Source: a virus
IMG/VR virus record: IMGVR_UViG_3300034092_002634
Location: 1-64,000 of that record
Length of the DNA stretch: 64,000 bases
Reading direction: 5' to 3' (one strand)
Shown: piece after piece, positions 10,260 to 33,108 of the stretch
How positions within the stretch are numbered: position 1 is the stretch's first letter
How the letters are laid out: each line of letters starts with the position of its first letter
Translations under genes and position numbers: made by a program
The notes under the pieces: model-generated
What the model saw: the letters and a program-made list of their open reading frames with translations, nothing else
Databases searched by the model: none
Told to the model about the DNA's origin: nothing

Positions 10260-10268
10260 TTATTCCTC

Positions 10269-12011: not shown

Positions 12012-12424
12012 ATCTCCACCAGCCTGAACGATACGTTGTAATAGGGTTTATTCGTCATTGTCACGCTTGTTGAAGCAAGCTCTGCCTGCCAACTGTTAGG
12101 CTCAAAAAATACCGGATATTCCTTCGATTCGAAGCAAAAAACAATGTTCGTCGATACGCTAGAAAACCCTTGATAGATACCGCGCAAATTCGCTACTGTT
12201 GCTAAGGGATAGCCTAAACTACCCGAGTACACAATCATGTTAAAAGTAACATTCCACATGCGTTTGTACGCTCTATGCAGATACGAACTCGTTCCATCAA
12301 TAGCCTGAAGCACCTCAGACACATTGTTCATTGTGGTACTTATTGAAGATGCTTTTAAATCTTGATAAAATCCATAACCATGTAAACTACCGCTTAGGTA
12401 GATAGGTTGTATTGTATATGTCAT
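12008..12424 (-). CDS. Distal tail protein (Dit-like)
   Basis: 138 aa directly downstream of the tape measure gene; 'AIDGT...YKRMWNVTF...VSFRLVEI'. Confidence 0.6.
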   Translation of the reverse strand: MTYTIQPIYLSGSLHGYGFYQDLKASSISTTMNNVSEVLQAIDGTSSYLHRAYKRMWNVTFNMIVYSGSLGYPLATVANLRGIYQGFSSVSTNIVFCFESKEYPVFFEPNSWQAELASTSVTMTNKPYYNVSFRLVEI

Positions 12425-12470: not shown

Positions 12471-12482
12471 TTATACCATATT

Positions 12483-15400
12483 TTAACTAGATGTTGTCGG
12501 TGGTCCTGGTTGCGTCCAACCGCCTGGAGGTGGAGGAGTTGGAACAACTGGTGGTTTTTTCTCAAGTGCATAAGTAGGTTTAACTCTCAATGCCCAACCG
12601 TCTTCTGTGTTCACACCGAACTTGCCTAAGTCACCTTGAGGTACATCACGAGCTGCTACGTCAGCCATGTCTTGATAGTTTGCGCTGTATTTGTCGGCGT
12701 ATTCTTTACCCTGACCTTCACCGTACACGACCTCACCGAGCTTAAGCATGCCTTGATACGCTAGTGCATTTGCTTCGTCGGTCCTGCCAGATAACCACAG
12801 TAAGTCTGCTTGTCTTTGAGTATTCATAAACGCAGATGTTGCTGCCATTATCGGGACCATTTCTTCCGGAACAATTGATGCGATTTCAACTGCAGCGTCA
12901 GCAAACGCTTGAATCATGTCCAGTCTTTGATTATTGAAGTTTCTTAGAGCGTCTTCCATTTGTTGTTGAAACGAGGTTTCAAAATCATCAAGGCTGTAGA
13001 GAACTCCCTGAGTTGCGCTACCTGCAACATCCGCTATTTGTTTAAACGACTCAGTAGTGTTTGCTTCGAAAAGACTGCCTGTTCCTAATAATCCCGATAG
13101 ACTGTTCATAGTCTCAGCTAATCCAATATCAGATTGAGCAAACCCACGAGACATTGTTTGACTTGAACGACTAGCGTTAAGAAAAGCTAAAGGATCTTTT
13201 GACTTTGCTGCATCGGCTAGACTTGCAGCGTCATTTGCAATATCTAAAGGTCTAAACTGATTTTGAAACTGTTGATCGCTAATTTGTTGGCCCAATTGTT
13301 TTGCAGTTATTTTGTCTCCAAGAGTTTGTTGGAGCCATGTCTGGTTCGCATTTTGACCTGCTATTGTTTTTGATGCATCTGGGCTTAATCGCACAATTGC
13401 TGAGTCAATTGCGGCCAATTGCGTTGGGTCGGTCACAGTGCTTCGCATGTTGCGTAGTTTTTCTAAAATTGGCTCTATTTCACTTCTTTTTGCGTCCTGT
13501 AAAGCTTGCCTGTTTGGGTCTGTAATAGACGATGCTTCGTATGCGGCGTCTGCTGTTCGTAACGCATCAAAGTTTGCAGATAGCGAAGGATCAATTGCAA
13601 CAAGGGCGTCCATCGTCGCAGTATCTTTTGCAAGGAAATTTTTTGAATCACCCTGTCCTAGATGTTGAGAATACATGTCTTGCGCCCAATACTGTGATTC
13701 AACTGCTGCTTTGTCTGCTGGGTCAATGGCAGCCATGGCGATGCTTCTTGTAGCGTTTGCTCGTGTTACACCTTTAACAAGGTCGGCTTGCATGGTCATT
13801 TGTTGCATGGTTCGTGTGTAATTTAAATGAATGCTTTCTAATTGACGCATGCCGTTTCTTGCTATGTCTTCAAGATTACGTTGGTGATTCTTATTCAGAT
13901 CACGTTCTTGAATTGCATTACTCATTCCTCTTCTTTGAAGTTCGGCATTTGCATTTGTGGCATTTGATACAAACTGCTGCCACTGCGAAGGAGCAATGCC
14001 AAGCGCGTTTTCTCGAACGCCTTGCGCGTTTACTGCCATCATGTCTCTTGAGTATGCTATTGTTCCTCGAGGTCCTGATGTGTACGGCATAACCATCGGT
14101 CCGCTACCTGAGTAAGGCTGTCCGTTAAGACCGTTCAAACTCGATATTGGATTACCGTTTTCGTCGTTTCCTCTAGGACGCAGTTGCATTCCAATCATGC
14201 TGTCATAACTAAACCCTGTCATTTGCTGTGCTAAGTCCAGGCCATACCGTGGGTTCCCTTCGGACATTATATTCATAGTATCCATAAAAGAACGTCCAAG
14301 ATCTTGTGCAGTGGATCCTGCCAAGTTCATGTACATAGCAAAGTTAGTGAAGCCCGACTTTAGTAATTGAGCTTCGGGTGCATTAGCTAAGGCTATAGCG
14401 CGATTTGTACGTCCAATATCCTGCTGCTCTCTAACTGCTGCTCGTTGAGCCTCAGTTACCATCTGCACTGTGTCTTCTGCACCTGCGCGATTACGGGGCA
14501 TCAACCCGGAACGTTGTGCCATACGCACAGCTCTCGCTTCCGGAGTATTATCCATTACCAGGCCGGCGCTACCAGAACTTCCGTTAGCGTTAACTCCTGT
14601 TAAATTAGCTGTAGTTTGTTCCCCTAATCCCATAATTGATTGCCTTGCAAAGGCAGTTAGAGTAGTATCCACACGTTGTTGCCGTCTTTGAAAATTGCGA
14701 TCCATTGTGCCGTCAAAAAAGTTTTTTGCTTCTTGTTTGTAGTCAGTTGGATTAAGCCCCTGTTGGTAAGTTTGATCAGCTGCTAATCTTATCTCCTCTG
14801 CAGTCATATTATTAACTTCTTCAGCAGACATTATTAAATAACGCATAGCTTCAGGTACTTTATTCCACTCAACATCTGTGTATGTAATTTCTTCTATTTT
14901 AGCAGCAGCCTTATTAATTTGAGTTTGATATTTTTGACCTTCAGCTAAAGCTCCTGCTTCAAACGCGTCGTCTCTCTTTTTAGTTAAGTCTACGATGTCT
15001 GCTCGAAGTGGAGAAGCCTTGGCTTCAGCTAACGCTCGTTTGTCTAACCTGGTTCCATATTTAATGCCACGCTCAACTAATTTCTCATTTTCAATAAGTG
15101 CCCCAGTCTGCCCTATAGGCTTTAGTATTTCCTCACGCATTGAATCAAATTTTCTGTATGTGGTCGGATCTACGTCGGCTGTTTTTTTAAACGCAATAGT
15201 TTGAGCTTCGTAATCAACATACGACATCATGCTTTTCGATATTGGGTCGTATACCTGACGCTCTAGTATTCTCTTAGTTGCATCACCAGCTGTAGCAAAT
15301 CGCTCTTGCCCACTTTTCGCAGCTTCTTCGTAATTTGCCAAATAAACTGGTCCTAACGAAGCGATGCTCTCTTCCATAATTAGAGCAGTTGATTTTTTCG

Positions 15401-18400
15401 GGGTCCCAGTACCTGGAAGAACTGTAGCACCCGCTCCAAACCCAGGGGCAAGTACAATTTCCTTACTTGGCTTATCAGATCGATATTTAGAACCTCCGAC
15501 ATACTGACCGATCTGCTCAGCTTCTAAGTTTGCCTCAGCTGCAAAGCTAGTAAATACGTTCATTTTTGCATTTTGTTGATTTAGCTCACTTTGCATTCTA
15601 TACAATTCTCTCATTTTTTCAGGAGAACTATCTAACCGATCTGACACATAAGCCCCGCCTGCATATAAACCTACGGCCGCCACGGCAGGAAGTGCTACTG
15701 CAGCGGCTATCTCAGCGGCCATCAACCCACCAAGGCCCGCTAATCCAGCTGTACCAAGTGTGGCGTTGGTAGCAAGCGCTGCTCCGCCTAAACCGGCTGC
15801 CGATCCTGCGACTGCAGATCCGCCCAAGCCTAATCCATATTTATTCCAAAAATAGGAACTGCGTACTTCTTCCGAAATTTCGGGAGTTCCTCCAAGGTTT
15901 AAATCTCTAGCTACTCTGTTTTGTGGGCCTACTCCATTATCAGCAACTACCTTCTCTATGTATCCAAGACTATCTATAGTCTGTTTATCAAGTCCTTGCA
16001 TAAAAGCGGAAGATGCGTTTCCGGTCGCTATCATCTCGAGCGAGTAGTTTTTACCCTCGCTATTTAGCAGCTGAGCAACTACTCTATTGTTCTCGTCAAT
16101 GTTTTTTAAAGTCCCTACCAGTGTAATTTCCGGTCCTTCTCCGGATTTATATTCCCCACCAATCATGGCTCGGTCCATTCCTACTATATCAGCACCGCCA
16201 ACACGAGCTGCAAACTCATCTTGAGTTCCTTTTTCCTGTGCGTCTATAACACCCGTTCTCACCCTGACCAAATCTTCACGTCCTGGTATTTCTATATCAT
16301 ACGTATCAGCGTCAACTTGCTTTCTTATTCTCCCCTTAGTCATAAGAGGTTTGTCTTTTACAGGCTCGTCATTAAAGTTAATATAGCCCAAGCCCAGAAC
16401 GCTGAGATCTGTTGCACCTTGATCCGCTACAAGCAAACCAGCTTCGGCTTTTTTGTAAGCCTCTGCATACGCCGCGGGGTCAGCATTCACTTGCCTAGTT
16501 TTTAAAGACTCGCGCTGATTTAAAAATTCAGGACTTGAGTTGTAGTCACCAGGATTATTTCGCATAGCTCGCATAATTGCCTGAGTTGCATTCATTCCCT
16601 GTGCTTGACCAAGCAGTGCCTCAAACTGAATGTTTGCTCGTTCCTGGGGCTTCATATTACCGAGAAGTCGATAACCGGGAACTGACACAGACGCGCCGGT
16701 AGCGCTATTATATCTTCCCGCCTGGCCGGCCATTCTTCCGTTCGCTGTTGCTAAAATTGTATCCATTTGAGAAGTAAATGTGCTTAAGCTGCCACCTATG
16801 TTAACGCTATCTAACCCAGTTTCTGGATCACTTAGTACGTCGTCTCCATACGAAGTAATAGTTTCTTTAAGTACGGTATTAAGTGAACGCTCTTTTACGT
16901 TCTTACCAAAGTACGACTGCTCTCCAATTAAAGATTCAAGCGCCGGAGTGATAAAGTCGACTATCGCCGTAGTTGAGCTAATTTGCACACTTTCCAGATT
17001 ACCGATCATCTTGTCGTATTTAGTCGCCATAGAGTTTGCTTGCTCATCAATAAGTCTATCAGTAACGCCCATACTTGAAAGAAGCTGATCAAGACTATCA
17101 AGCATTTGTGTTGCATCGCCGGTATTAATTTTAGAAAGCGCGGATCGATTAATTTCAAATCGACGTGAGAGAGACGAAACGTTACCAGATAGAAATTCTT
17201 TGATTGCTATGCCAGCACCTTCCATACCTTGAGCTGGGTCAAACGCGGCTAATTTTCTAGCTACTTTTACAGACTTTCCAATATCTACACCGTACGCGTT
17301 TGACAAAGGAATAAAGCTAGTAACTTGACCTAGATTTGAAGTTAATGAGCCGCCGAATTGCTTTCTCTGCATATCAGCCGCATTTAATGCGGCTGTATAA
17401 TTCTCTGGATCAAGTGCTAACCCTCTTGCAGTCGTCATTACCCTGTTAGATCCTGTAGCACTACTCGCAAACTGCTGAATCATTCCTCCGGCCATTTGCG
17501 GTATGTTTGCTAGACTAGTAACAGTATCAACTGCCGCTTGAACTACACTCTGCGTGTCTCTAATTTTTGACGCGGCATAGAATAACTTATCGCCCATCGG
17601 TGCAGATCTTTTTGTCTGTTCGACTCTGCCGGACATTCGTGCTATACCTGTCATATCTTCGGCAGTAATATTAATACCTTGTTTTTGTAATCGTTCAACT
17701 GTGTCTCGCTGCTCTTGTACAGTTGCTTGCGCCATGTCAACACGTTTTCCTGTTGCTGTATATGCTCTTATTCTTCCTCGGTGCATAAGGGCGTCTAGTC
17801 CTTCCTTACCGAAAGTGTCTCTTATGTATCCCTCTTGTATCTGCCTCATTTCTCTTTCACGTCTGCCGCCGGCAAAAAATCCAGGTCTACTTGCTGCTGC
17901 TTGCATTTGTTCTTCGACAAGCGAAACTTTCTTTCGATTGTCCGTTTCAATTACACCTGCAGTTCCCCGCTGTTCTTTTCCAGCCGCACTTGTTTCGTCA
18001 ATAGCAGTTTGAACAACCGCCAAAGCTGCTGCTGCTTGAGGAGAGGTAGCTGCTATAGGAGTAAGCGCCGCTTTCAGCTTCTCTAATCCAGAAACTACAG
18101 TAAATAAGTCGTCAGCGACGTCTGTAATTGTACCGCCAACTTTTCCACTAAAATCTGTTAAACTTTTAGCTGCATCATCATAAGCTGACTGTACTTCGGG
18201 ACTTGTTGCTGCAATCGCTGCAATATCGGCGGCCATTCCCGGAGCTTGTATTCCCGAACTGTTAATCATTGTCGTTGCAGTACTGCGCGTAAGGTCTGTT
18301 AAAAATTTACGAGAATCGGCCGTTGTTCCGCCCGCAATACCCATAGACCCCGCTGATTGATCGAATGAGTTTCGCGCTAACTGTAGAAATACCTGCTCGT

Positions 18401-24400: not shown

Positions 24401-27400
24401 CAACAGACAGTACAGGTCGATCCGCAGAAGGTGCTCGATCTTCCAGAATCATACGAGCGATCTCGGTTGAAGCAGCATTTAGCACACTGGTAGTTACAGA
24501 TTCAGATGAATCTGTAGGAGACACGGTTACTCCTAAATCTTGAAGAATTGCCTTATCTTCTTCAGCTAGCTTGTCTATTTCCTCGATTTTTTGAAGTCTT
24601 GCAGCAACATCTTCATTTTTTGCACGTATTCCTTGGTTAACTCTTCGCGCACGCTGTATATCCCACGATGGCTGGTGCATTTCGGGAGGATTGGACTCAT
24701 CCTCAATTGCAAAATCCTCAAGCATCGCCCGCTTAAGTTTTAAACGATCTCTTTTTTTACTTTCTTCTGATTTTTCCTTAGAAGCTGGATCAGACGCAAG
24801 TAAATTGGCGCGCTCTATCAGCGCTTGAGCTGCTTCAGGGTTTTCGGCTGCGTTGTTGAGTATAGCCGTAAGATCTTCCGGATTCCAAGAATCTCTATCT
24901 TTTTCGTCTTCCGGTGCCATAGATATGGCAGCACCTATAATATTTCCAAAGTCTAACCCAACGAATGGTGAATCTGTTGAAATTTCGCCATTTTCCATGT
25001 CCAGACCAAGTCTAGCAAACGCATCTAGAAGCGGCGGCATTCCGCTTTCTTGAGTGCCTTCTTTAATACCGCGATTTGCTCTTTTTTTGAGCGGTTCAAA
25101 ACTCTCTATTTCTGCTTGTCTTTTTTCTTCTTCGGGTTTTAGTAAACTATCTAATTTTTCTATTTCAGAGTCTAATTGTGCTATGTATTCTTCTGAGGGC
25201 ACGCTATCAAAAAGTTCTTCTACAAGTTCGTCAAAAACAGATTCTTGTTCTGCTCGGGACCCAGGTGCCTCATATGAGTATGCAAAGTTTGGCCGCTGGT
25301 ATTCTTGTATAGTTACAGGGCCGGTAACAGATTGCTTCTCAATTTGTCTTTTTTTAGATCTTATTGTAACTTCTTGAAGTGTTTTTAGTTTTTCAGTACG
25401 TTGTATTTCCTGCTCAAGCGCTGCTACTTTTTCCTCCCCTGCAGCTATTTCCTGATCTACTATTGTTTGTGCATCTTCTCCGGTTATTGCTGCTTTTTTC
25501 TTTGCTTCTAGCTCAGTCAACTCAGCAGTCAATTCGATCATTTTTTGCGTTTGTTCGTTGCTAATTGGAGTTTCTTCTTGATCGTTTGTAATTTCCCCTG
25601 ACGCTACCATTGCCTGCAGTGCTACTAAAGCTTCTCGACCAGCAGCCACGTCTCTTTGAGTACTCATTCTACTAGCGTCTATCTGACCAATTGCAGCGGA
25701 AAGCGGCAGTATTTGAACTCCTTGAGTTTCAAAATGAGTTGCCGCAGGTGATACGCTTTGAACTCTACGCATGTAAAACGCATCAGTTGTTGTTGGAGAA
25801 ATTGCAACAGGCACGTCAGCTTTAGGGTCGAACACCACTCCGAGTTCTTCTTGCGCCTCTCTTTCAGCGGCTTGCCATTGTGTTTGACCAGGATCAACAG
25901 TACCCATTACCGGAATGGCTACTCCTCTCCCTTTGTACGATTTTGTAGACTGCCCGACAACAACCATTGGCTCGGATTGACCTGGTACAAAGAAATAAGG
26001 TACTGCTCCTGCAGAAGCTCGATTACTTGCAGAAGTATCGGGTACATTATCTGGTGTAATTGCCGAAACCTCCGGCATTACCTCAGGACCGACAGAAAGA
26101 CCTAAAGTTTCGGCTACTGCAGCGTTTACAACTCTTGATGCATCACTGCCAGGAACTTCTGGAGAAATATCAATTCTACCCGTTTTTGCAAATCTTTCAC
26201 TTATCTGCTCTGGATAATCTGCGGTCAGCGGTAAAGTGCTGCGTCTTGACATGTACGTAAGCTCACCGTGTGATACATCTGGGTGAACATACGTTCGTCC
26301 TGCTACTTGACCTTGGCCCGTTACTCCTCTTTCTGCTGCTTCTCTTGCAAGTTTAGTTGCGGGAGATTCTAATGCTGCTATCTCTCCTTGTACTCTTGCT
26401 ATTTCTTCGTCTATTGTTTCTGGTGTTGAAATTACTGATACTGGAGTTTCTGGTGTTGCAGTTTCCGATGCGGTAGTCAATATTCCCCGTTTTACAAGTT
26501 CTCCCTCAATTGCCTGAATATTAGCTTCTGTAACTACTTTAGCTTTTCTTGCACTTATTGGCCGAGTTTGCTCAGCTGCTTCATACTCTTTTTGAGCTCG
26601 ATGCGCCTCGTCTCTTGCTTTGAAAACTTTTTGCATTTCCGGTGTTTGTTGCAATCTTTGTAACGTGGCTTTATTTTCTTCAGCTTCCTCGTAACTTAGG
26701 GAATTTCTTTTTAAGCGTGCCTGTAATGCTGCATCGTATTCATCGACAATATCTTTATGTGTTAGTTCAATCAGATTTAAAAGCGATTTTTTTCGCTCAA
26801 ATTTATCTTTAGCTCTTTCTATATCTTCTTGACGTTCTTTTTCTAATCTTTCATCTATGTCTGGCTCGTCAGTCATCGCTTGCTTTATCTGACTTAGTTT
26901 ACGTTTTTCTTGTGCTAAAGACGCCTCTAAATGCTCGGTAGATTGAGTTTCGCTAAATGATTCTTTAACAAGTCCGCCAGTCTTTACTACAGGACCTATT
27001 TGCTCGCTTCCCGTAATACCTATAAAACTTCGGTCGTCTTGCAAAGTACCCAACTCCCCCTCGTCAAGAAGCAGTCTTTCACCTAAGCCAACAAAACCTT
27101 CGGTATCGACCTCTGGATCTAGTTTACTAAATTGTCCGCTATGACTGTATGCATCGGACGCTAAGAAAACACGTGCCGGAGTTTTTGATTCAACTGCCAA
27201 AACCCTGCCTTCATGCATAATTCCGCTTTCAGTAGCCCCAATTGCCGCAGTCGAAGGTCCTGTATATCCACCTTTATCTTCGCCCAGCGTTTCTTTAGAA
27301 ATACCTAGGTCAGCTGATTCTATTAAAGCGTCTCCGGCAGTAACAAATTCATGCTTGTAGCCTTCTGAACTTCTTGTTCTGCGGTAAGCCGCGAACGTAG

Positions 27401-30400
27401 CACCAGCAATTTGTCCGGAATCTTTTTTATCTTGCCTACTATGTAAATATTTTATAAGTTCGCCAACAGTTGGGCTTGTTCCGGCTTCTTCAAATGGTTT
27501 TAAAAATTCTATAAATTGGTTTCTTGATTCATCCGTTTTCTGCAAACCTGCGCGGTTTAACATAAGTCTAGCAGTCGAATCTTTGTCATCTGCTGCAAAA
27601 AGTTGTAAAAGGTCGTTTACTTCGGTTTGTGCTGATCTATTATTGACTCTTGCTAGAATTGATTCGGTTGTAAACGGCTCGTCTGCGGGTAAATTAGCAG
27701 CTTCCTGTACCAGCATTTCTGCTAAATGTGTAGAAAACCAAGCTTTACTGACTCCATCAGCCACTGCTGCAGTAAGTGTACCTGTTTCCGCATTTTGACG
27801 GATGGCTAGTCTATCTTGATTTCCTTTTGCTTCTTGTTCTTCCTTAGAAGCTAAAAACGCGACAAAGGCCGGAGATTCTATAAGTTGATCTTCTCCAGTA
27901 GTCGAGTGTACAAAAACTGACTCATCCTCGGCTGTAACATCTTCGGTAATATTTTTTCTTTCTGTAAGATTTATTCTAGGGATTTTTAAAGGTACGGCGT
28001 TTTCGTCTATTGCTATTTCTTCATCTATTGTATCAGCATAAGATAAAACATCAATCGCTTTTTCTGAACCCGCACCTTCTGACCTCATGTCACTAATGTC
28101 TTTTTTAACTGCTGCAATTTCCCCGTCAACGTCTGATTCTTTAATTACAGCTTCAACTGCCTTAGCGGGACCATCTCCAGGTAATTCTGCTTCTAACGCT
28201 GCTCGTTCTTCTCTTAGTTTTTGCAGATTATCTAGCTTAGCTTTATGAGCCATCAAGTTAGTAAGGCGTTGCTCTTGAGTACCAGTTCCGTATCCTTGAG
28301 ATTCGTCAATCTGGTATCGGCCAGTTTGATTAAAAATTTCCTGCATGATGCCTAAATCGTAAATTGCACCACTTCTCGTCGCGGGGTCAATATTGTCCAT
28401 TTGGGCAATTGTGGAAAGATATTCAAATTTTTGAGAAATAGGATCTGGTTCCGATGCTTTGTAAGTAGCAAGTTTTTGCTTAAGGATCTTTAGTTGATTG
28501 TTTTTTTGATCTATAACCGGAAGTATTTTATCTGCTTCGTGAGGTGCTAAAGCTATTCTGCTTCGCATTTCTTCTATTTCTGCAGTTAATTGCTCAAACT
28601 CACGCATTGCTTCTTGAATTTTTATTTCATTTTCTACGTTGCGGCCATACGCACCACCGACAACTTGACCAGACTCTTGGTTTGCAACTTCTGCACCCTT
28701 GCCCAACAAGCTGTAAGACGCTCCTTGATCAGGAACGGCTGCAGCTACATCCGGACCCGTACCAACTAGTCGGTCCTGTCTTCCTAAAACTCGGGCTGCA
28801 AACTGAGGCATACCTTCGCCTGACTGCACGTTGTCAGTTAATAAATTGCTGAACAACGAAAGCGATCGGTTAACCGCTGCAGATACATCGGTTGTGTTTA
28901 TGTTAGCAGGATCAAACATCGCTAAAGCGCGAAATTCATCTTGAAACCCTGCTGGAGCAACCCCGGCTGTTTCGTAATCCGAAATCATTTGAGTGACTTC
29001 ATCAACTCCCATGCCGGCAGCGCCACCTCGTCGCCTAATTGAAGCAACTATTTGATTTTTTATTGCTGGGGCTGCCAAAGTCAACACGCGTTTAATTAAT
29101 TCTTTGGGATCCATCGACGTGTCTAACTCAGCAAGTTGCTTAAGTGATTCAGAATCTATCGCTTGCAGATGCGGAAGTTTAGCTTGCACCTCTTGAAATA
29201 GACTCTGCTCTTCTGCGTCAAGGTCGGTTGAAGTTGCTAACTTAGCATACTCAATTAAGGGAATACCGCCAGAGCCGTAACTACCCATTTCTGCGGATGC
29301 TTGAACAATTGATTGCAAACCTTTCTTTGTTCTGTAGCCACCACCAAGCGATTGATCAAGCTCTTCTCCCTCAAGCATTTTACCGCTGGCGTCTGTCGCA
29401 CGTGCTGCATGATACATACCAGTAATGACATTACCCGCAGAAGCAGACTGTCGAGATAAACCAAAAGCATCACTTATAATTTCGATAAACTCTCGATTTT
29501 GCTGACCTGACGATACTGTGCCGGCTGAGTCTAACTGCTGCGTAATTGGCGTAGTTTGATAGCGGTCTAGTGCCATAGACTGACCGGACGTCATATACTC
29601 TACTAACGACTGTACGGGACTAGTTCCATAAGAGGGCCTTGCTGGAATTGTGAGTCCCGATTGTGCAAGTCCCGCAGAAACTTCCTGAGCCTTGCTCATA
29701 ATCGGCGCTACCGCATCAGGTGTTGCAGGAATGGATCCAATAGACTGTTTAAATAAAACAGTTAGTGCTTGATCTCGCGTTAACGCCGGAGCTGTGTTAC
29801 TGCCCGGAAGTGCTATCTGTCCACGTCTTTGCGCTAACTTTTTTTCCTCTTCTGGATTTTCAGATTCAGCCAGAATCTCATCCAGTAACTGTATCTCTTT
29901 GCCAAGCTTTGCCGACTCAGTTCTGTAGCGATTAGCCATTGCTGGAGCCGCAGTTACCATACTGAGATCCGCCTGATCTCTCTGATAAACAAGTCTTTCG
30001 CGCAAACGTTTTGCGTGAGTTACTGCCAACGTAACTTCCTGTTCTTGTTCCGGAGCAACTGTCTGCTCTACAAAACGACTAGCGGACTGATCTGAAACAG
30101 CCCCTGTCGAAGTATATTGATTTATTAAATCGCCCGCAAACAAAGCAACAAACTTTCGTACTGGATCTCCAGTAACTATCGCCCCTCTAGGTCCCCGAGT
30201 TCCAGCCATTCTACCAAAAGCTGTTGTGTGTTCTGACAAAATTGAACTAGATTGAATCGCCTCCACAACCATTTTTGCAAGAGATTCAGGCAAGTCTACA
30301 GTCTGCCCTGCGATCGAAGCGGGCCTTATGTTTCCTTCTTCTATGTCCTGCATAACGGTTGAAAAGAGCGCGTCAACCGCCTTTTGTACTTCGGCGTCCA

Positions 30401-31916
30401 TGCCCCCACCGAAAACGGCGCTTGAGCTTCCGGCTACTACTTGGGAACCGGCACGAACGTCTACGCCTTGCGCTTCCGAACTGTAACGACGCGTAGGATT
30501 TAGTGAAGCTTTAAGTGATTGAATATACTTTGAAATGTTAGCACCAATTCTGGTTACCTGTCCCGGAAATACTCGGCTACTCCGTAAAGCGTCTACTACT
30601 TGAGGACTACCGTCTTCTCCGGCATTTTGTATGCTAAAGTCAGTTCCCAAAAATAACGCAGAAGAATCTACTTCTTCTGCAGTACCTGGATCGACTGTTC
30701 GGCTTCTTGGTATTACCGGTCGAGTCGTTGCTTCTGCAACTACCGTTTTCAATCTTTTCAGCAACTGATCAAAAGCCGCCGGACGTAAAAACTCAAAACC
30801 TTCAGTACTTAAAGCTGTTTCTCCTACTCTTCCTGCTGCACCATTCTCAAGTCTAGTTACCAACATTTCAACGGCTCTGGTTAGAGCGGACTCAATTTCA
30901 GAACTGCTAGCTACTGGAGACATTGCCGCATTAAGTATAGGGTCGTCTAATTTTACTGCCCGCAATGCTTCAATAATTGGGGCAATAATTGATTCTTGTG
31001 CCGTTTGTCGCTGTGTGTTGCTTACTGTGCCAGAAGATTGATTTATCTTTTTGAATGCTTGCTTAATTTGCTGATTTATTCTATTTTTGTCCGCAGGAAC
31101 AGTTGCCTCTTCTCGGTCTTTTACAAGTTTTTGAAGTTCGGCGACAATCGGGGCAATTTCCGGACGAGTTTCGGCTGGATTTTCGTGACGCAGTTGAGTA
31201 TTCACATATTTAACAATTGCCGAAACGGAGGCGTTTTCGGGAGGCCTTGCTCCGCCCGATTGAGCTACGCTGACTCGTCCTCCTCGATTCGGTGTAACAG
31301 CATAACTTGTAGCGGAACGAGTATCCGGTGTAGTAAGTGCCCATTTCATGTCTGCGTACTCAGGATCCGCAACTGGTGAACTTGATTGAGAGCTTCTTAC
31401 CGAAGTTCTCATCTTAGCTTGTGTTCTTCTAACCATATCCCTAAGAGTATCTTCTCGTTCATCTATTTGCTGATCTAGTTGTGCGAGCAAAAGTTCAAAG
31501 TTAATGCTTCTGTCTGTATGTCTTTTTACAACCGCTGGCCTGTTCTCACCACGAATCTCCTGTACTCTTGCTCTTCTCTCTTCGTCTAGTTTGTCTTGTA
31601 CTTCCTTACGCCTACGTGCTGCATCCGAAACTACAGGTGTTGAACGAACACCGCCCGAGACAGGACTTTCGTCAGCTGATGATTTTACTGAAAGTGAGCT
31701 TACAACTTTAATCTCATTTTCTAACTCGTTGATAACTTTGCTAGCTATTTTAGCATCTGCTGTAATTTCTTTTAAATATCCGGCTAAACCACCTTCGTGT
31801 GCGTTTGCTTTGCTTTGTATAACCTTCTCAAAAACAATAGCGGCTTCCTCACTAGTACTTTTTAAAAGCGTTAGTGTTTCAATTAACTCTACTAATTGTT
31901 GTATTTTAACTGACAT
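12483..31916 (-). CDS. Giant tape-measure protein fused to multiple enzymatic domains (polyvalent protein)
   Basis: 6477 aa, positioned between the tail chaperones and Dit; tape-measure-like segment (VARKLAAFDPAQGMEGAGIAIKEFLSG); hydrophobic Gly/Ala segment near 15650-15840; coiled coils; embedded enzyme motifs listed separately. Confidence 0.85.
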   Translation of the reverse strand: MSVKIQQLVELIETLTLLKSTSEEAAIVFEKVIQSKANAHEGGLAGYLKEITADAKIASKVINELENEIKVVSSLSVKSSADESPVSGGVRSTPVVSDAARRRKEVQDKLDEERRARVQEIRGENRPAVVKRHTDRSINFELLLAQLDQQIDEREDTLRDMVRRTQAKMRTSVRSSQSSSPVADPEYADMKWALTTPDTRSATSYAVTPNRGGRVSVAQSGGARPPENASVSAIVKYVNTQLRHENPAETRPEIAPIVAELQKLVKDREEATVPADKNRINQQIKQAFKKINQSSGTVSNTQRQTAQESIIAPIIEALRAVKLDDPILNAAMSPVASSSEIESALTRAVEMLVTRLENGAAGRVGETALSTEGFEFLRPAAFDQLLKRLKTVVAEATTRPVIPRSRTVDPGTAEEVDSSALFLGTDFSIQNAGEDGSPQVVDALRSSRVFPGQVTRIGANISKYIQSLKASLNPTRRYSSEAQGVDVRAGSQVVAGSSSAVFGGGMDAEVQKAVDALFSTVMQDIEEGNIRPASIAGQTVDLPESLAKMVVEAIQSSSILSEHTTAFGRMAGTRGPRGAIVTGDPVRKFVALFAGDLINQYTSTGAVSDQSASRFVEQTVAPEQEQEVTLAVTHAKRLRERLVYQRDQADLSMVTAAPAMANRYRTESAKLGKEIQLLDEILAESENPEEEKKLAQRRGQIALPGSNTAPALTRDQALTVLFKQSIGSIPATPDAVAPIMSKAQEVSAGLAQSGLTIPARPSYGTSPVQSLVEYMTSGQSMALDRYQTTPITQQLDSAGTVSSGQQNREFIEIISDAFGLSRQSASAGNVITGMYHAARATDASGKMLEGEELDQSLGGGYRTKKGLQSIVQASAEMGSYGSGGIPLIEYAKLATSTDLDAEEQSLFQEVQAKLPHLQAIDSESLKQLAELDTSMDPKELIKRVLTLAAPAIKNQIVASIRRRGGAAGMGVDEVTQMISDYETAGVAPAGFQDEFRALAMFDPANINTTDVSAAVNRSLSLFSNLLTDNVQSGEGMPQFAARVLGRQDRLVGTGPDVAAAVPDQGASYSLLGKGAEVANQESGQVVGGAYGRNVENEIKIQEAMREFEQLTAEIEEMRSRIALAPHEADKILPVIDQKNNQLKILKQKLATYKASEPDPISQKFEYLSTIAQMDNIDPATRSGAIYDLGIMQEIFNQTGRYQIDESQGYGTGTQEQRLTNLMAHKAKLDNLQKLREERAALEAELPGDGPAKAVEAVIKESDVDGEIAAVKKDISDMRSEGAGSEKAIDVLSYADTIDEEIAIDENAVPLKIPRINLTERKNITEDVTAEDESVFVHSTTGEDQLIESPAFVAFLASKEEQEAKGNQDRLAIRQNAETGTLTAAVADGVSKAWFSTHLAEMLVQEAANLPADEPFTTESILARVNNRSAQTEVNDLLQLFAADDKDSTARLMLNRAGLQKTDESRNQFIEFLKPFEEAGTSPTVGELIKYLHSRQDKKDSGQIAGATFAAYRRTRSSEGYKHEFVTAGDALIESADLGISKETLGEDKGGYTGPSTAAIGATESGIMHEGRVLAVESKTPARVFLASDAYSHSGQFSKLDPEVDTEGFVGLGERLLLDEGELGTLQDDRSFIGITGSEQIGPVVKTGGLVKESFSETQSTEHLEASLAQEKRKLSQIKQAMTDEPDIDERLEKERQEDIERAKDKFERKKSLLNLIELTHKDIVDEYDAALQARLKRNSLSYEEAEENKATLQRLQQTPEMQKVFKARDEAHRAQKEYEAAEQTRPISARKAKVVTEANIQAIEGELVKRGILTTASETATPETPVSVISTPETIDEEIARVQGEIAALESPATKLAREAAERGVTGQGQVAGRTYVHPDVSHGELTYMSRRSTLPLTADYPEQISERFAKTGRIDISPEVPGSDASRVVNAAVAETLGLSVGPEVMPEVSAITPDNVPDTSASNRASAGAVPYFFVPGQSEPMVVVGQSTKSYKGRGVAIPVMGTVDPGQTQWQAAEREAQEELGVVFDPKADVPVAISPTTTDAFYMRRVQSVSPAATHFETQGVQILPLSAAIGQIDASRMSTQRDVAAGREALVALQAMVASGEITNDQEETPISNEQTQKMIELTAELTELEAKKKAAITGEDAQTIVDQEIAAGEEKVAALEQEIQRTEKLKTLQEVTIRSKKRQIEKQSVTGPVTIQEYQRPNFAYSYEAPGSRAEQESVFDELVEELFDSVPSEEYIAQLDSEIEKLDSLLKPEEEKRQAEIESFEPLKKRANRGIKEGTQESGMPPLLDAFARLGLDMENGEISTDSPFVGLDFGNIIGAAISMAPEDEKDRDSWNPEDLTAILNNAAENPEAAQALIERANLLASDPASKEKSEESKKRDRLKLKRAMLEDFAIEDESNPPEMHQPSWDIQRARRVNQGIRAKNEDVAARLQKIEEIDKLAEEDKAILQDLGVTVSPTDSSESVTTSVLNAASTEIARMILEDRAPSADRPVLSVDELRVGRNEELHKLPEEILDVGLAGNKNTLRETIGFESARRTQGMTGPAITVPTLAGLLANKDQLLLDKDGQPILIYRGEDEDQVAAKQGETPLAYEAVEREGDPLAVFPSEFPMAMGGGSRYGEGLYHTSTRTGSETDEEQSPDTSREVAHGYRSKSVEGEIRSSVNVSALLSTASLLDADSEMIQKAQQRVDERRIALGLTPLPKDTASAMRGGVEDVMEELYREKVDPTARLQSDILNEADMLMLPYGGGSSNINLGVKSYPVSRRTDVPEEVQTRLQALHEEFVAAPKPDELAVAMGYDAIRYRAEHNPNTPVHLNLFNAAATALVLDPVIPNTAKHLGSESLSLQVEPTLREEAKYSETERRAQELQSQLEQQKQQLEALKARSEALKQEAAAASTPSVDVTAVTEESKRVADETVKVSADIKVPTEEIQKRKADVDAKIAEAEQAVAQSQQVIELMQRQAQGLDTEDSDIRFVVDNTGIPVSYEDKQVIDRTSLRPLVRTKMTVDDTGESGFVSNLNVRDIVDQAEAVKPTAELMDEISKMSDADLAAVKMPRATLSPEDQAIDDELKRKSREAQNYASRLYNTEGPISAAIKEYYRTPSGDRKDELLKTHPELKTIVDEIQKQENLVIQHDASRAALTAPAVAAAESSASPLQLAARLFRSSRAAVRAYETEFGVEPAFSAREVMDELLASSARAEVDSAPAGSAETAVALDKTISSFEGGIPEIKGSTDRAPRRPRRAPADVVADVEQPYTENQLKYARAQVRALAGRTDLTAEQKRQLSEARKKLHNYAMKRLTTNFGDNKGVMQIANVVAGLTPPDWAKDDVQSARVSAISQAMASLKPIQLAKLKDADLTNPVQMDILSRDPALQPIMAMLADQDIESVLKFRSGTTEYDEAKGLLGAIKGARERIVVPEPDEPTTSTAAEAKRLFFDLETNIAKKPEDRLIFQAATGVNDGAVTDMYAVPLDSSAEEINRIAADPTIPDDEKRKLIRALALKREGKLPLVEGRASGNDVSSGVIDKLVDTAMSGRQIMSQGQIRKNLQLQIEGATTVAGHNIQKFDLPTVYGGTMAVPDAVKAKTEDTLLMSRDMYPGSHTLGATYEAVTGDPLVDAHDAAVDTRAVQRIFPQVSDPEERAKVTEAYLAKHGIAVDSTVGQLVATPKLEDIADAEERKKATSRVAAAHSFYRPLADMQEFTRRIARRGDKTILRDADRTVAAEQDWYDMSASEKSSLFDRMNSMFAGDLKGKKIEELNPEELGEFVKKINTEYLEPNADAAVGGDFGGMKRLLEEKVGGGMSFRDFRAKDARVADIKGKTIEDVVATADLSPVTVGPAISKETVGDAIEDISLATERPTKVKTPGSAPSVTASTSDGGSKEPPREPPVTFSDDADSGERGGPGGGITTIASATIDTLHAGAVEINIHGGNVTIDANFSAGAAEKMQKSLVYISNKDGMNVNGDVTSVGTGGGGGGYRRVSVADRSILNQLDAAKNQIAGQLQTETDPATRERLRGNLNEVSRQAIRAIIEPKVKAIDSEGMEPYVNERFYYGDETTDSKESLTYYNDAVAQAHQDLTTQLEAQQAIPEGTDGRDEEIQRIQKQISLVEELINALTELNQAEQRVGSATSTRAIVDPTEVKKPAYPTNNSGYRKLSPEDRASLAVLDATKNSISEQLRTEQDPEARARLKETLTGASKKAIADIIKPKATKLLGYGFVNTVDALSTSPEDSLVNYSQAAQSKLSELNGRLFMIESEREDAPGREEAIERTKREIQQVHELIDALTELNQAEQRVGAAGATRNAESPYGPKPTADPRAGANKYRKVSFADQASFNVLESTKNEVSARLRDETDSAARDALRQSLVNASERAINEVIKPKAAKVLNPTQLAALSALPMGPEEALVSYNEMAQYNLNNLSTELATQEALPEGTSGRDTEIERLKAEIAAVEELINALTELNAIEQRVGSASGTRNVNSPYGTTSGTGTGTSASKYYSRKAKEDEQVFLQLARNSFDQSAGSMGIAGGTTADSRKFLTDLTRSTATTMINSSGIQAPGMAADIAAIAATSPEVQSAYDDAAKSLTDFSGKVGGTITDVADDLFTVVSGLEKLKAALTPIAATSPQAAAALAVVQTAIDETSAAGKEQRGTAGVIETDNRKKVSLVEEQMQAAASRPGFFAGGRREREMRQIQEGYIRDTFGKEGLDALMHRGRIRAYTATGKRVDMAQATVQEQRDTVERLQKQGINITAEDMTGIARMSGRVEQTKRSAPMGDKLFYAASKIRDTQSVVQAAVDTVTSLANIPQMAGGMIQQFASSATGSNRVMTTARGLALDPENYTAALNAADMQRKQFGGSLTSNLGQVTSFIPLSNAYGVDIGKSVKVARKLAAFDPAQGMEGAGIAIKEFLSGNVSSLSRRFEINRSALSKINTGDATQMLDSLDQLLSSMGVTDRLIDEQANSMATKYDKMIGNLESVQISSTTAIVDFITPALESLIGEQSYFGKNVKERSLNTVLKETITSYGDDVLSDPETGLDSVNIGGSLSTFTSQMDTILATANGRMAGQAGRYNSATGASVSVPGYRLLGNMKPQERANIQFEALLGQAQGMNATQAIMRAMRNNPGDYNSSPEFLNQRESLKTRQVNADPAAYAEAYKKAEAGLLVADQGATDLSVLGLGYINFNDEPVKDKPLMTKGRIRKQVDADTYDIEIPGREDLVRVRTGVIDAQEKGTQDEFAARVGGADIVGMDRAMIGGEYKSGEGPEITLVGTLKNIDENNRVVAQLLNSEGKNYSLEMIATGNASSAFMQGLDKQTIDSLGYIEKVVADNGVGPQNRVARDLNLGGTPEISEEVRSSYFWNKYGLGLGGSAVAGSAAGLGGAALATNATLGTAGLAGLGGLMAAEIAAAVALPAVAAVGLYAGGAYVSDRLDSSPEKMRELYRMQSELNQQNAKMNVFTSFAAEANLEAEQIGQYVGGSKYRSDKPSKEIVLAPGFGAGATVLPGTGTPKKSTALIMEESIASLGPVYLANYEEAAKSGQERFATAGDATKRILERQVYDPISKSMMSYVDYEAQTIAFKKTADVDPTTYRKFDSMREEILKPIGQTGALIENEKLVERGIKYGTRLDKRALAEAKASPLRADIVDLTKKRDDAFEAGALAEGQKYQTQINKAAAKIEEITYTDVEWNKVPEAMRYLIMSAEEVNNMTAEEIRLAADQTYQQGLNPTDYKQEAKNFFDGTMDRNFQRRQQRVDTTLTAFARQSIMGLGEQTTANLTGVNANGSSGSAGLVMDNTPEARAVRMAQRSGLMPRNRAGAEDTVQMVTEAQRAAVREQQDIGRTNRAIALANAPEAQLLKSGFTNFAMYMNLAGSTAQDLGRSFMDTMNIMSEGNPRYGLDLAQQMTGFSYDSMIGMQLRPRGNDENGNPISSLNGLNGQPYSGSGPMVMPYTSGPRGTIAYSRDMMAVNAQGVRENALGIAPSQWQQFVSNATNANAELQRRGMSNAIQERDLNKNHQRNLEDIARNGMRQLESIHLNYTRTMQQMTMQADLVKGVTRANATRSIAMAAIDPADKAAVESQYWAQDMYSQHLGQGDSKNFLAKDTATMDALVAIDPSLSANFDALRTADAAYEASSITDPNRQALQDAKRSEIEPILEKLRNMRSTVTDPTQLAAIDSAIVRLSPDASKTIAGQNANQTWLQQTLGDKITAKQLGQQISDQQFQNQFRPLDIANDAASLADAAKSKDPLAFLNASRSSQTMSRGFAQSDIGLAETMNSLSGLLGTGSLFEANTTESFKQIADVAGSATQGVLYSLDDFETSFQQQMEDALRNFNNQRLDMIQAFADAAVEIASIVPEEMVPIMAATSAFMNTQRQADLLWLSGRTDEANALAYQGMLKLGEVVYGEGQGKEYADKYSANYQDMADVAARDVPQGDLGKFGVNTEDGWALRVKPTYALEKKPPVVPTPPPPGGWTQPGPPTTSS
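15960..16345 (-). other. SNase (thermonuclease)-like domain in the giant protein
   Basis: KQVDADT...VRVRTGVIDAQE...IDENNRVVAQL...EMIATGNA follows the SNase pattern DGDT / RLxGIDAPE / DxYGRxLA / LVxxGxA; boundaries approximate. Confidence 0.7.
18498..19971 (-). repeat. Three tandem ~172-aa helical repeats in the giant protein
   Basis: Units begin YRRVSVADRSIL / YRKLSPEDRASL / YRKVSFADQASF and end ELI[ND]ALTELNxxEQRVG[SA]A. Confidence 0.9.
21005..21600 (-). other. DEDDh (DnaQ-like) 3'-5' exonuclease domain in the giant protein
   Basis: ExoI FFDLET, ExoII GHNIQKFD, EDTL and ExoIII AHDAAVDT; all catalytic residues present. Confidence 0.9.
23430..24190 (-). other. ADP-ribosyltransferase-like (ART-PolyVal-type) domain in the giant protein
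   Basis: IYRG...YGEGLYHTS...VAHGY...MGYDAI...LNLFN motif order; boundaries approximate. Confidence 0.6.
25620..26025 (-). other. Nudix hydrolase domain in the giant protein
   Basis: ASAGAVP followed by Nudix box G-TVDPG-Q-TQWQAAE-REAQEELGV (Gx5Ex7REUxEExGU with the first E replaced by Q). Confidence 0.85.
27015..27850 (-). other. PP2C/PPM-family protein phosphatase domain in the giant protein
   Basis: NQD...AVADGVS...GATF...AGDA...FLASDA...QDDRSFI; the PPM metal-binding motifs appear in order. Confidence 0.8.
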
Positions 31917-31926
31917 TTAGCACCAC

Positions 31927-32301
31927 CTACATAAATAATTTGAACGTCTCCGCCTCCTCCTTCAAGTCTTTTTCTTCCTGTTTCTTTATTTGTTGAAGTT
32001 TGCGGCGGACGCTAGCTTCTAAAGATTTTTGTTTAATGGCAATAATAGCAGCCATGTCACCGTAACTTAGCTTACCAAGTTTCTTAGCGTTGAGTGCTGT
32101 GTACTGCGTCGAATTGAGAAAGTGATCAATCCACATTGCGAGCTCGTCTTTTGTTGACGTGGCTGTCGCAAGCAGTTGACCCGCCGCGTTATTCTTGGAC
32201 GGGCTCCTGTACAGTGGCGTCCTTTTCAAGTGTCTCGAGGTATTTTTCGAAAGCATCTTTTGATATTTTTCCAAGAGTCCAAATATTTTCCGCGAGTTCA
32301 C
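31927..32301 (-). CDS. Tail assembly chaperone C-terminal extension (GT-like ORF)
   Basis: Overlaps the chaperone ORF in the +1 frame and directly precedes the tape measure gene; no convincing start of its own. Confidence 0.5.
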   Translation of the reverse strand: MNSRKIFGLLEKYQKMLSKNTSRHLKRTPLYRSPSKNNAAGQLLATATSTKDELAMWIDHFLNSTQYTALNAKKLGKLSYGDMAAIIAIKQKSLEASVRRKLQQIKKQEEKDLKEEAETFKLFM

Positions 32302-32590
32302 GTACTACCTCCCCATTCGCGTCAAGCAACTTCTTGGCCTGCGCTGAGTTCATTTTTGGTCTGATTAGCCCTTCGACAATAGTATTAATAGTGAATTCGG
32401 AGTTGTCCATTTCTCCATTTTTCTGCGACAGTTGATTAATCTTTTCCATCTGTGCGAAGCTTAGTGCGCGAATGCGTAATCTTTTTTTCAGCCCCTTAAT
32501 AGTCAAGTCAACCTCTAACATCGAATCATCCGTCAATAAATCATCTACGTTATCGTAGTATTCTCCGGATCCGAATGCGTAATCTAACAT
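32189..32590 (-). CDS. Tail assembly chaperone
   Basis: Between the tail tube and tape measure genes; 'LRIRALSFAQMEKI...IVEGLIRPKM...V.ELAENIWTL'. Confidence 0.8.
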   Translation of the reverse strand: MLDYAFGSGEYYDNVDDLLTDDSMLEVDLTIKGLKKRLRIRALSFAQMEKINQLSQKNGEMDNSEFTINTIVEGLIRPKMNSAQAKKLLDANGEVVRELAENIWTLGKISKDAFEKYLETLEKDATVQEPVQE

Positions 32591-32670: not shown

Positions 32671-33108
32671 CTAAGCAGGGTAATCGCCGTTGACTGCCGT
32701 GGTGACCGAGAAACCGCCGTTGTCCATGAAGTCAAACGAAACAGTAACCTGGTCGTTTGCAGCATTGGTCAACTGGTAACCGGTGATGATTGCCGAAGGA
32801 ATGGTCATGGTGTAGCCACCCTTGGAAACCAACGAAACACCGATGTATTCACCGGAGTTCGAGATGTTGATCAAGCGGGTGTGCGTGTCCTGTTGTGCGA
32901 TTGGCAACGTGACTTGGAATGAACCATTGACACGCTTCGTGGTGGTGAAGGTGTACATCTTGCCGTTGTCGTTCAAGAAAGGACCAGCATCGACCTGCTG
33001 GGTCTGGAGGCTGGCCTGCCACTGCGATACAAACTTAACATTGTCGTAACCAGTGTCAGCTGCGTTACGAATCTTCAAATACCCTTCAATACCTTTTACG
33101 ATACTCAT
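32671..33108 (-). CDS. Major tail tube protein
   Basis: 145-aa beta-rich protein 'VKGIEGYLKI...W...V.GSF...AIITG....A.DQVTVSFDF'; strongly biased codon usage; position. Confidence 0.8.
   Translation of the reverse strand: MSIVKGIEGYLKIRNAADTGYDNVKFVSQWQASLQTQQVDAGPFLNDNGKMYTFTTTKRVNGSFQVTLPIAQQDTHTRLINISNSGEYIGVSLVSKGGYTMTIPSAIITGYQLTNAANDQVTVSFDFMDNGGFSVTTAVNGDYPA

Follow-up and report, generated by a model that had tools for sequence, protein, structure and literature searches.

A 6,477-residue protein in the tape-measure slot of a freshwater phage carries several probable enzyme domains

[quoted passage not shown] The window that we analyzed comprises the first 64,000 nucleotides of this record (IMGVR_UViG_3300034092_002634). 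The gene occupies positions 12483..31916 on the minus strand, as do all of the features described below, and its open reading frame (ORF), P0001, runs uninterrupted from an ATG start over 6,477 aa. An initial annotation, made from the letters of the window, had described the product as a tape measure loaded with five enzymatic domains. We asked whether such a gene is real, whether the slot is that of a tape measure, which of the domains hold up, and what the protein might do.

The gene is real and a single giant ORF, as shown by its uninterrupted frame, by identical independent contigs and by conserved relatives. Identical copies of the protein are on record from five contigs. Two lake-water runs (2020 and 2024; depths 13 and 23) each yielded a single Logan contig, 49.3 kb and 22.1 kb long, that spans the interval 12441-32000 with 0 differences and 0 indels, and a third sequencing run covered every bin of the interval at at least 99%. 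The stretch turns up again in many lake-metagenome studies dating from 2016 to 2024 (no RNA run is listed among the sequencing runs that hold it), and the frame stays open over 12-19 kb in divergent relatives. An assembly chimera, which would have undone the annotation, or a set of separate genes joined by sequencing errors, is therefore extremely improbable: two independent Logan assemblies reproduce 19.5 kb identically. The one observation on its side, with no other support found, is a low-depth contig (run X9) with a joint that skips 21215-29371. One side of this joint measures 21 bases, and the joint contains 24 foreign letters and breaks the frame; we judged it to be an artifact or a foreign contig.

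The surroundings of the gene resemble those of a tail operon. Upstream lie two overlapping ORFs of 133 and 124 aa in the position of tail assembly chaperones (31927..32590; the second in the +1 frame), preceded by a gene for a 145-aa tube-like protein (32671..33108). The order of tube-like gene, two small overlapping chaperone-like ORFs and giant ORF is kept in eight related loci, and the overlap and relative frame of the small ORFs are also kept in L002, L009, L013 and L019. The 133-aa ORF matched the XkdN-like family phrog_389 (E = 2.6e-4); a PHROG scan of 38 neighboring proteins from nine loci returned XkdN-like only, in two members. The tube-like protein gave no match with the PF06199 HMM or in a PDB-profile search. 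In the language-model Atlas, it is a look-alike (score 0.96; 195 of 256 features) of a viral cluster in which 25% of the members carry PF06199 (Phage_tail_2). On the other side of P0001, three presumed tail-tip genes of 138, 580 and 843 aa (7728..12424) keep their order in eight loci. The initial annotation had called the position exactly that of a tape measure, which overstates the case: behind it stand the conserved order, one weak XkdN-like match and the tube look-alike, and the downstream genes that it named Dit and hub found no match in Pfam, PHROG or PDB-profile searches. No sheath-sized gene lies upstream of the giant ORF, no other ORF of TMP size or character occurs elsewhere in the complete genome, and the lineage probably has long non-contractile tails.

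Sequence searches placed the protein in no TMP family. Known TMP families (PF10145 PhageMin_Tail, PF20155 TMP_3, PHROG and NCBIfam) matched neither P0001, searched whole and in windows, nor anything else in the genome. Megablast and tblastn (with the C-terminal 1,997 aa) found no match among 50,697 phage records of INPHARED, a search of genome contigs found no relatives of P0001, and single-sequence phmmer against the PDB returned a weak Nudix match and coiled-coil noise only. About 80% of the 6,477-aa protein has no assignable fold. None of the TMP models of Pfam, PHROG and NCBIfam matches, so “tape measure” is here a label of position only. P0001 also has TMP-like traits, namely a single Gly/Ala-rich hydrophobic segment and internal repeats of varying copy number.

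We found more than 15 related phage contigs with ORFs of 3,991-6,357 aa and the gene order of P0001, and all verified members of this family are single ORFs. Short database members were considered as a minimal form of the protein and rejected: P0010 and P0011 begin inside conserved motifs and are fragments of giant ORFs, and P0015 belongs to an ORF of 4,476 aa. Residues 4570-5190 (16347..18209) form a family-wide core, with the motifs FGGSLTSN and KEFLSGNVSSLSRRFEI, that is present in all of the ~20 relatives at 34-97% identity. The “tape-measure core” proposed earlier thus exists as a strongly conserved region, but it fits no known TMP family, with no match to PF10145, PF20155, the PHROG or NCBIfam TMP models or PDB profiles. 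P0008 and P0009 are normal-sized proteins that share this core. A hydrophobic Gly/Ala-rich segment at residues 5361-5425 (15642..15836) is the sole membrane-like stretch of the protein, with a Kyte–Doolittle maximum of 1.96 and no other window above 1.4; its composition is conserved in relatives, and it agrees with the transmembrane segment of the initial annotation. The C-terminal region (residues 5430-6477; 12486..15629) is conserved in all relatives at 24-82% identity and matches no Pfam, PHROG or NCBIfam family.

This module of core, SNase domain, membrane segment and C-terminal region (the last of ~1,050 aa) is universal in the family, and the C-terminal third that it makes up can be viewed as a chassis. 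Upstream of the chassis come one to three ~170-aa repeats, the DEDDh domain, two conserved regions and a variable zone at residues ~1250-2900. P0001 itself has three tandem repeats (residues 3979-4497; 18426..19982) that are 42-46% mutually identical, in line with the three repeats noted before; relatives have fewer copies, and no tandem repeat was found at the DNA level. One of the conserved regions is the N terminus (residues 1-1240; 28197..31916), which is 46-94% identical in near relatives and 25-28% identical in distant ones and has no match in Pfam, PHROG, NCBIfam or PDB profiles. The other (residues 2907-3430; 21627..23198) has no PDB-profile match.

Four of the five proposed enzymatic domains stood up to profile and motif analysis (Nudix, SNase, DEDDh and, as a probable case, PP2C), whereas the ART-like one had no HMM match. 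The N-to-C order given for the domains was correct, and the series PP2C-Nudix-ART-like-DEDDh recurs in L021, a metagenome contig that is 44% identical. The Nudix hydrolase domain (residues ~1960-2090; 25647..26039) scored 28.1 bits against PF00293, above the gathering cut-off of 21.1, over HMM positions 14-63 only, and the corresponding domain of L021 scored 29.2 bits. Compared with the consensus Nudix box GX5EX7REUXEEXGU, the box of P0001 reads G-x5-Q-x7-REAQEELGV, so that the first Glu is replaced by Gln and the RExxEE part is intact. The box is kept in four of five members, with the EE pair lost in P0004.

The SNase domain (residues ~5190-5330; 15927..16349) occurs in almost every family member. 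A family profile (A4) matched PDB thermonuclease with E = 1.3e-11, the match running from residue 10 to residue 120 of the 143-residue chain. P0001 scored 16.6-18.9 bits against PF00565, below the cut-off of 21, and the aligned domains of relatives scored 22.3-44.8 bits (including 33.6 and 44.8). The motif-aligned residues (DxDT, the Arg before DAPE, the D and E of DAPE, and D...R) are invariant in eight members; DAPE reads DAQE in P0001. We take these residues to correspond to the catalytic and Ca-binding D21, R35, D40, E43 and R87 of SNase numbering.

The DEDDh 3′-5′ exonuclease domain (residues ~3435-3640; 20997..21614) matched phrog_192 (E = 1.4e-6), and its family profile (A5) matched PDB entry 9mrc (E = 1.1e-6). 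The sequence of P0001 itself has no match to PF00929 (RNase_T), for which a ~100-aa insert that separates ExoI from ExoII is the probable reason; the aligned domain of L018 passes this model with 36.7 bits. The motifs FDLET, GHNxxxFD and HxAxxD, which supply the D, E, D, H and D residues, are invariant in six members. Invariance of catalytic residues between members that are 25-35% identical argues for selection on activity.

A PP2C/PPM-like phosphatase domain is probable at residues ~1350-1640 (26997..27869), in the variable zone. Three members scored 16.8-17.5 bits against PF13672, below its cut-off of 24; PP2C_2 was the sole Pfam match when the domain segments of two relatives were scanned alone and one of two weak matches in the corresponding part of P0001. 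On residues 2-300 of a partly confident AF2 model of PP2C and Nudix, every VIA-align match was a PPM phosphatase, at Z scores of 7.2-8.2 that are rated middling: RsbX (8.2; rmsd 3.6 over 147 aa), PppA (7.8), Lem3 (7.8) and SpoIIE (7.2). Foldseek with this model, in which the Nudix part was unusable, found nothing at E ≤ 0.001, although numerous PP2C chains appeared at weaker values (E = 0.02-0.5). The Asp motifs NQD, ADG, GD, SDA and DD are kept in six members at 25-71% identity, and the late DG motif reads DA.

These weaknesses in score and motif would also be expected if the enzyme-like domains were inactive relics, kept as spacer that lengthens the ruler. P0001’s own scores fall below the Pfam cut-offs for PP2C, SNase and RNase_T, and to the substitutions in Nudix (E to Q), PP2C (DG to DA) and SNase (DAPE to DAQE) is added the lost EE pair of P0004. 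Neutral spacers would, however, lose the metal-binding and catalytic residues that are invariant in SNase, DEDDh and PP2C at 25-35% identity, and we consider the relic explanation very unlikely.

The ART-like module (residues ~2570-2830; 23427..24209) was a lead from the Atlas feature search, in which ART-PolyVal clusters took ranks 2-3 with scores of 0.84-0.85, and as an ART domain it was not supported. The segment has no Pfam match in P0001 or L021, and phmmer against 1.84 billion representatives found only the family member P0007. An AF2 model built from a two-sequence alignment had a mean pLDDT of 48, too low to use. Conserved residues comprise an R, GG..YG.G.Y...T, GYD..R and an N. The catalytic Glu expected on the last core strand is not conserved: the aligned position holds H, F, Q, Q and Y in five members, and no Glu is conserved nearby.

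The PP2C, Nudix and ART-like modules all sit in the zone (residues ~1250-2900) that relatives swap, and P0001 has all three. P0002 is without residues 1848-2907, which hold the Nudix and ART-like modules; P0003 and P0007 are without PP2C; and the distant IMG/VR relatives L003-L019 show none of the three. The linker just C-terminal of the ART-like module is 100% identical between P0001 and L021, whereas the flanking domain is ~45% identical.

Such shuffling of many unrelated enzyme domains on one giant chain is shared with the polyvalent proteins of phages and conjugative elements, reportedly described by Iyer, Burroughs, Anand, de Souza and Aravind in 2017. Polyvalent proteins are believed to accompany the DNA into the recipient, and as a rule they are associated with head (MuF-type) or conjugation modules. 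P0001 could be a polyvalent or internal virion protein, or a cleaved polyprotein, encoded in the tail operon, with tail length set by the chassis alone or by another protein. The failure of every TMP family to match would fit, as would the great variation of the ~4,500 residues that precede the universal core (ORFs span 3,991-6,477 aa), and giant multi-enzyme polyvalent proteins of phages are, since Iyer et al. in 2017, said to be an established class. We nevertheless regard this as quite unlikely. P0001 lies in a slot after tube and chaperones that is conserved, and the genome offers no other candidate ruler. The polyvalent marker domain went undetected (the ART-PolyVal HMM, PF18760, has no match in the P0001 genome or in the records of four relatives), and the verified family members are single ORFs, the shorter database entries having proved to be fragments of giant ORFs.

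With four enzyme domains supported in the tape-measure slot, the phage probably brings ready-made enzymes into its host by way of the tail. Our preferred reading, to which we give a probability of roughly 0.55, is that P0001 is a protein of the tape-measure slot turned enzyme carrier, in an uncultured freshwater phage lineage with genomes of 78-84 kb. Like other TMPs, it would be built into the tail and expelled at infection, when the membrane segment may help to form the entry channel. The attached enzymes could then arrive in the periplasm or cytoplasm ahead of all phage gene expression. Host nucleic acids or nucleotide signals might be the targets of the two nucleases, and host phosphoproteins or nucleotide derivatives those of the phosphatase and Nudix domains. 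Anti-defense roles such as kinase reversal or signal destruction are purely inferential.

Several observations count against this reading. Folded PP2C or nuclease domains would be too large for the lumen of a tail tube. We also counted against it the Nudix Gln, the PP2C DA and the sub-cut-off scores of P0001’s own PP2C, SNase and RNase_T regions, as well as the missing TMP family match, the ~80% of the protein that can be assigned no fold, and the identities of tube, Dit and hub, which come from a language-model lead or from nothing.

Enzymatic domains on tape measures are familiar from the muralytic domains of T5 pb2 and mycobacteriophage TM4. P0001, unlike these, carries phosphatase, Nudix and nuclease domains rather than cell-wall hydrolases, and, unlike classical TMPs, it matches no TMP HMM. 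It also differs from polyvalent proteins with their ART-PolyVal markers in its place in the TMP slot.

The initial annotation knew of no precedent for its domain combination, but a TMP fused to an enzyme has been published: gp96 of Thermus phage P23-45 (also in P74-26, G20c and TSP4) is a 5,002-aa TMP with a virion RNA polymerase (Chaban et al. 2024, PMC10770324). The polymerase is active and was detected in virions, and its authors propose that it acts at entry (PMC10770324). P0001 resembles gp96 in exceeding 5,000 aa, in its TMP slot, in a siphophage genome of ~80 kb and in combining membrane segments of TMP type with a catalytic domain. It differs in showing no detectable sequence relation and no counterpart of the metallopeptidase domain of gp96, and in its four or five enzyme domains, which are small, belong to other classes, are partly swappable and are known from sequence alone. 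A TMP-polymerase of the P23-45 type was ruled out for P0001, in which the DxDxD metal-binding motif of two-barrel RNA polymerases is absent from all 6,477 residues.

The precedent bears on what delivered enzymes might be for. The enzyme fused to the P23-45 tape measure serves phage transcription rather than counter-defense (PMC10770324), and P0001 might likewise be an ejected tape measure whose enzymes serve the phage’s own entry and genome handling instead of attacking host defenses. DNA ends could be trimmed or protected, nucleic acid in the envelope or periplasm cleared, or the first transcripts prepared. The placement of the nucleases in the conserved part (SNase in nearly all members, DEDDh in many) fits housekeeping better than arms-race cargo, and the SNase domain adjoins the membrane segment. 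Against this, the PP2C, Nudix and ART-like modules are present in some close relatives and missing from others, as is typical of conflict-driven accessory cargo, and none of the three has a known function in DNA entry. On balance, a role confined to the phage’s own entry seems unlikely to us.

Our preferred reading of an enzyme carrier can be taken further in a tentative proposal, in which the TMP would be a modular injection vehicle across a lineage of freshwater siphophages. A fixed chassis would receive cassettes (PP2C, Nudix and a new kind of ART-like domain) exchanged by recombination at conserved linkers, and the enzymes would refold in the host and disable immunity based on phosphorylation or nucleotide signals before phage expression, as a counterpart of polymorphic effector delivery.

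That tails carry pre-made enzymes is an idea with one published precedent. If the enzymes of P0001 are delivered, the pre-made catalysts that phages pass through their tails would extend past the RNA polymerase that is the single known case, and the tape measure would be a second route of takeover or counter-defense ahead of expression, besides head-packaged proteins. The family would provide a compact test bed, with genomes of ~80 kb, a conserved gene and naturally occurring variants, having or lacking each module, that recur in lake metagenomes over eight years. P0001 also bears on how a tail tube holds a protein with globular domains and on whether tails of ~1 micron occur in lakes.

On this last point, the initial annotation had argued that a pure ruler of this length would imply a tail near 1 micron and that much of the protein was probably cargo. 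The recognized enzyme domains amount to ~770-1,030 of the 6,477 residues (12-16%), which does not bear out so large a share. A ruler near 1 micron is conceivable for P0001 because 540-nm tails have been documented for Gordonia phages Hotorobo and Monty, whose 9,984-bp TMP gene encodes 3,327 aa (PMC4982279). P0001 is like long TMPs of this type in standing behind presumed tube and chaperone genes, in its internal repeats, in hydrophobic Gly-rich sequence and in how much of the genome it takes up. It differs in its gene of about twice the length, which fills 23.5% of the genome compared with ~13%; the TMP genes that in 2016 were counted with the longest reach about half of its 19.4 kb (PMC4982279).

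The giant gene is a single ORF of 6,477 codons with an ATG start (12483-31916, minus strand), occupying 23.5% of a source virus genome of 82,652 bp that is rated complete by CheckV and of which the window covers bases 1-64000. We found that the ORF is real and no artefact. A protein identical to its product is recorded from five contigs, and two Logan contigs, 49.3 and 22.1 kb long and each from a different sequencing run, span 12441-32000 with zero differences and zero indels, which disposes of an assembly chimera. In a third run, all bins of the region were covered at ≥99%, and the central 8-kb stretch of the gene occurs in metagenome runs of lake water and freshwater spread over many studies (2016-2024). 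Long open frames are kept in relatives: six database proteins have 5,424-6,357 aa, and complete ORFs in related IMG/VR loci have 3,991, 4,476, 4,666, 5,041, and 5,521 aa. Two related records, G002 (locus L015) and G003 (locus L018), are complete with direct terminal repeats (78.0 and 79.9 kb). Apparent short family versions (1,000-2,600 aa) proved to be fragments of giant ORFs in the cases that could be checked. One low-depth contig from run X9 joins 21215 to 29371 out of frame, with 24 foreign letters between them and a shorter side of only 21 bases; we regard it as probably an artefact or another organism's contig. The 6,477 residues include 15 tryptophans and no cysteine.

The protein begins with a region conserved within the family (residues 1-1240), followed by a variable zone (residues ∼1250-2900) that contains a PP2C-like domain (1350-1640), a Nudix domain (1960-2090), and an "ART-like" module (2570-2830). 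A conserved region (2907-3430) leads into a DEDDh exonuclease (3435-3640), three repeats of ∼170 aa with 42-46% mutual identity (3979-4497), and the family's most conserved part, the core (4570-5190). An SNase domain (5190-5330) then precedes the protein's sole hydrophobic stretch, which is Gly/Ala-rich (5361-5425), and a conserved C-terminal region (5430-6477).

The initial annotation had assigned five enzymatic domains to this protein, and the Nudix, SNase, and DEDDh assignments were borne out. The Nudix model PF00293 scored 28.1 bits in the giant protein (cut-off 21.1) and 29.2 bits in L021, a metagenome contig 44% identical to it; the Nudix box (G-x5-Q-x7-REAQEELGV) is kept in four of five members. 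For SNase, the protein's own PF00565 score (16.6-18.9 bits) lies slightly below the Pfam cut-off of 21, aligned relatives reach 33.6 and 44.8 bits, and most fragmentary family members bear PF00565 as a precomputed Pfam label. An eight-member family profile matched staphylococcal thermonuclease with an E value of 1.3e-11, the match extending over residues 10-120 of the 143-residue chain, and the motif-aligned residues (DxDT, R...DAxE, D...R) are invariant in the family alignment. The RNase_T HMM gave no match on the giant protein's own sequence, probably owing to an insert of ∼100 residues that separates ExoI from ExoII. The DEDDh domains of L015 and L018 are without this insert and match Pfam directly, that of L018 clearing the PF00929 cut-off with 36.7 bits. 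The domain also matched phrog_192, "DNA polymerase exonuclease subunit" (E 1.4e-6), the family profile matched PDB 9mrc (E 1.1e-6), and all five catalytic residues are invariant in the family alignment.

The fourth assignment, a PP2C/PPM fold at residues 1350-1640, is probable. PP2C_2 reached only 17 bits in the giant protein (cut-off 24), where it was one of two weak matches in the phage's own segment; it was the only Pfam match when the domain segments of two relatives were scanned alone. The AF2 model was confident for part of the domain only and had no significant match with Foldseek. With VIA-align against 48,161 chains, all matches covering model residues 2-300 were PPM phosphatases (Z scores: RsbX, 8.2; PppA, 7.8; Lem3, 7.8; SpoIIE, 7.2), and the Asp-bearing PPM motifs are kept in six members at identities as low as 25%.

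The fifth, an ADP-ribosyltransferase, did not hold up and stays a lead only. The module had no Pfam match in the giant protein or L021, the ART-PolyVal HMM had none in five records searched, and the family alignment has no conserved Glu at the position required of an ART. A search of 1.84 billion representatives found one family member and nothing else, the AF2 model was unusable, and the lead itself comes from an Atlas feature search in which ART-PolyVal clusters ranked 2 and 3 (score 0.84). At the sequence level, R / GG..YG.G.Y...T / GYD..R / N is a genuine pattern and the signature of a conserved module.

The variable zone differs among members, and the core-SNase-membrane-C-terminal module is found in all of them. 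Among the related proteins, P0002 is without residues 1848-2907 (the Nudix domain and the ART-like module), P0003 and P0007 are without PP2C, and P0005 and P0006 have PP2C without the Nudix domain and the ART-like module. All three are missing from the distant IMG/VR relatives, and L021 carries them all, arranged as in the giant protein. A coiled-coil linker after the ART-like module (23217-23321, minus strand; residues ∼2866-2900), ending in QLEQQKQQLEALKARSEALKQE, is 100% identical between the phage and L021, whereas the module before it is only ∼45% identical. The linker is found in P0004 too and may be a joint at which recombination exchanges cassettes. A direct repeat of 40 aa, weak in its match (45% identity, E 0.001), flanks the PP2C cassette at residues 1263-1302 and 1803-1840 (28011-28127 and 26397-26510, minus strand), near breakpoints of relatives. 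Judged from these sequences, the identical linker and the flanking repeat look like cassette exchange at conserved joints.

We then considered whether the giant protein is a tape measure protein (TMP). In favor of this, eight loci share the upstream order and the three genes downstream, and a 133-aa XkdN-like protein precedes the giant gene; a 124-aa ORF, also upstream, overlaps the XkdN-like ORF. The two chaperone-position ORFs (31927-32590, minus strand) overlap by 113 nt, with the frame of the second shifted by +1 (not −1) against that of the first, and this arrangement is repeated in four related loci (L002, L009, L013, and L019). The nearest Atlas cluster to an upstream 145-aa protein (0.96) has Phage_tail_2 in one-quarter of its members. 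The genome has no sheath-sized gene and no other candidate ruler among its genes, and the protein has TMP-like traits, namely a membrane segment rich in Gly and repeats whose copy number varies. However, no TMP model in Pfam, PHROGs, or NCBIfam matched it, tblastn against 50,697 phage genomes gave no match, and no profile identified the tube, Dit, or hub labels given to its neighbors. The TMP assignment is therefore positional, with a probability of roughly 0.7. The tube-like gene and the first chaperone-like ORF are separated by a GC-rich hairpin, a T run behind it, and then a strong RBS (32620-32665, minus strand), a terminator-like arrangement that may reduce how strongly the giant gene and the chaperones are expressed.

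On the model of other TMPs and of P23-45 gp96, drawing on established TMP knowledge and PMC10770324, the giant protein would become part of the tail during assembly and be expelled at infection, the hydrophobic segment would anchor it in the envelope, and the enzyme domains would arrive in the host ahead of phage transcription. It is speculation that their targets include kinases involved in defence, signalling nucleotides, or the nucleic acids of the host. The initial annotation's suggestion that much of the protein is probably cargo stays a hypothesis: recognized enzyme makes up only 12-16% of the chain and 540-nm tails are documented for a 3,327-aa TMP (PMC4982279), so a ruler near 1 micron is possible. 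A TMP-enzyme fusion is already published (PMC10770324); in P23-45 gp96 the enzyme is an RNA polymerase, whereas here it is PP2C, Nudix, DEDDh, and SNase, a combination that our literature search did not turn up in any tape measure. New are this domain set, the protein family itself, and the protein's size relative to its genome.

Elsewhere in the genome, the genes for a terminase-like protein (864 aa, with weak PHROG matches) and a portal (phrog_2739) at 43236-47263 (plus strand) are opposite in strand to the capsid and tail genes (32671-39530, minus strand), and an endolysin/amidase gene (47163-47891) directly follows the portal. A strong match to the "anti-restriction protein" family phrog_7245 (63051-63911, plus strand; E 5e-61) indicates that the phage has conventionally expressed counter-defence too. 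A ribonucleotide reductase (40380-42533, plus strand; phrog_367, E 1e-172) and two glycosyltransferases (1038-2255, minus strand, phrog_2170; 49415-50185, plus strand, phrog_29879) are also encoded.
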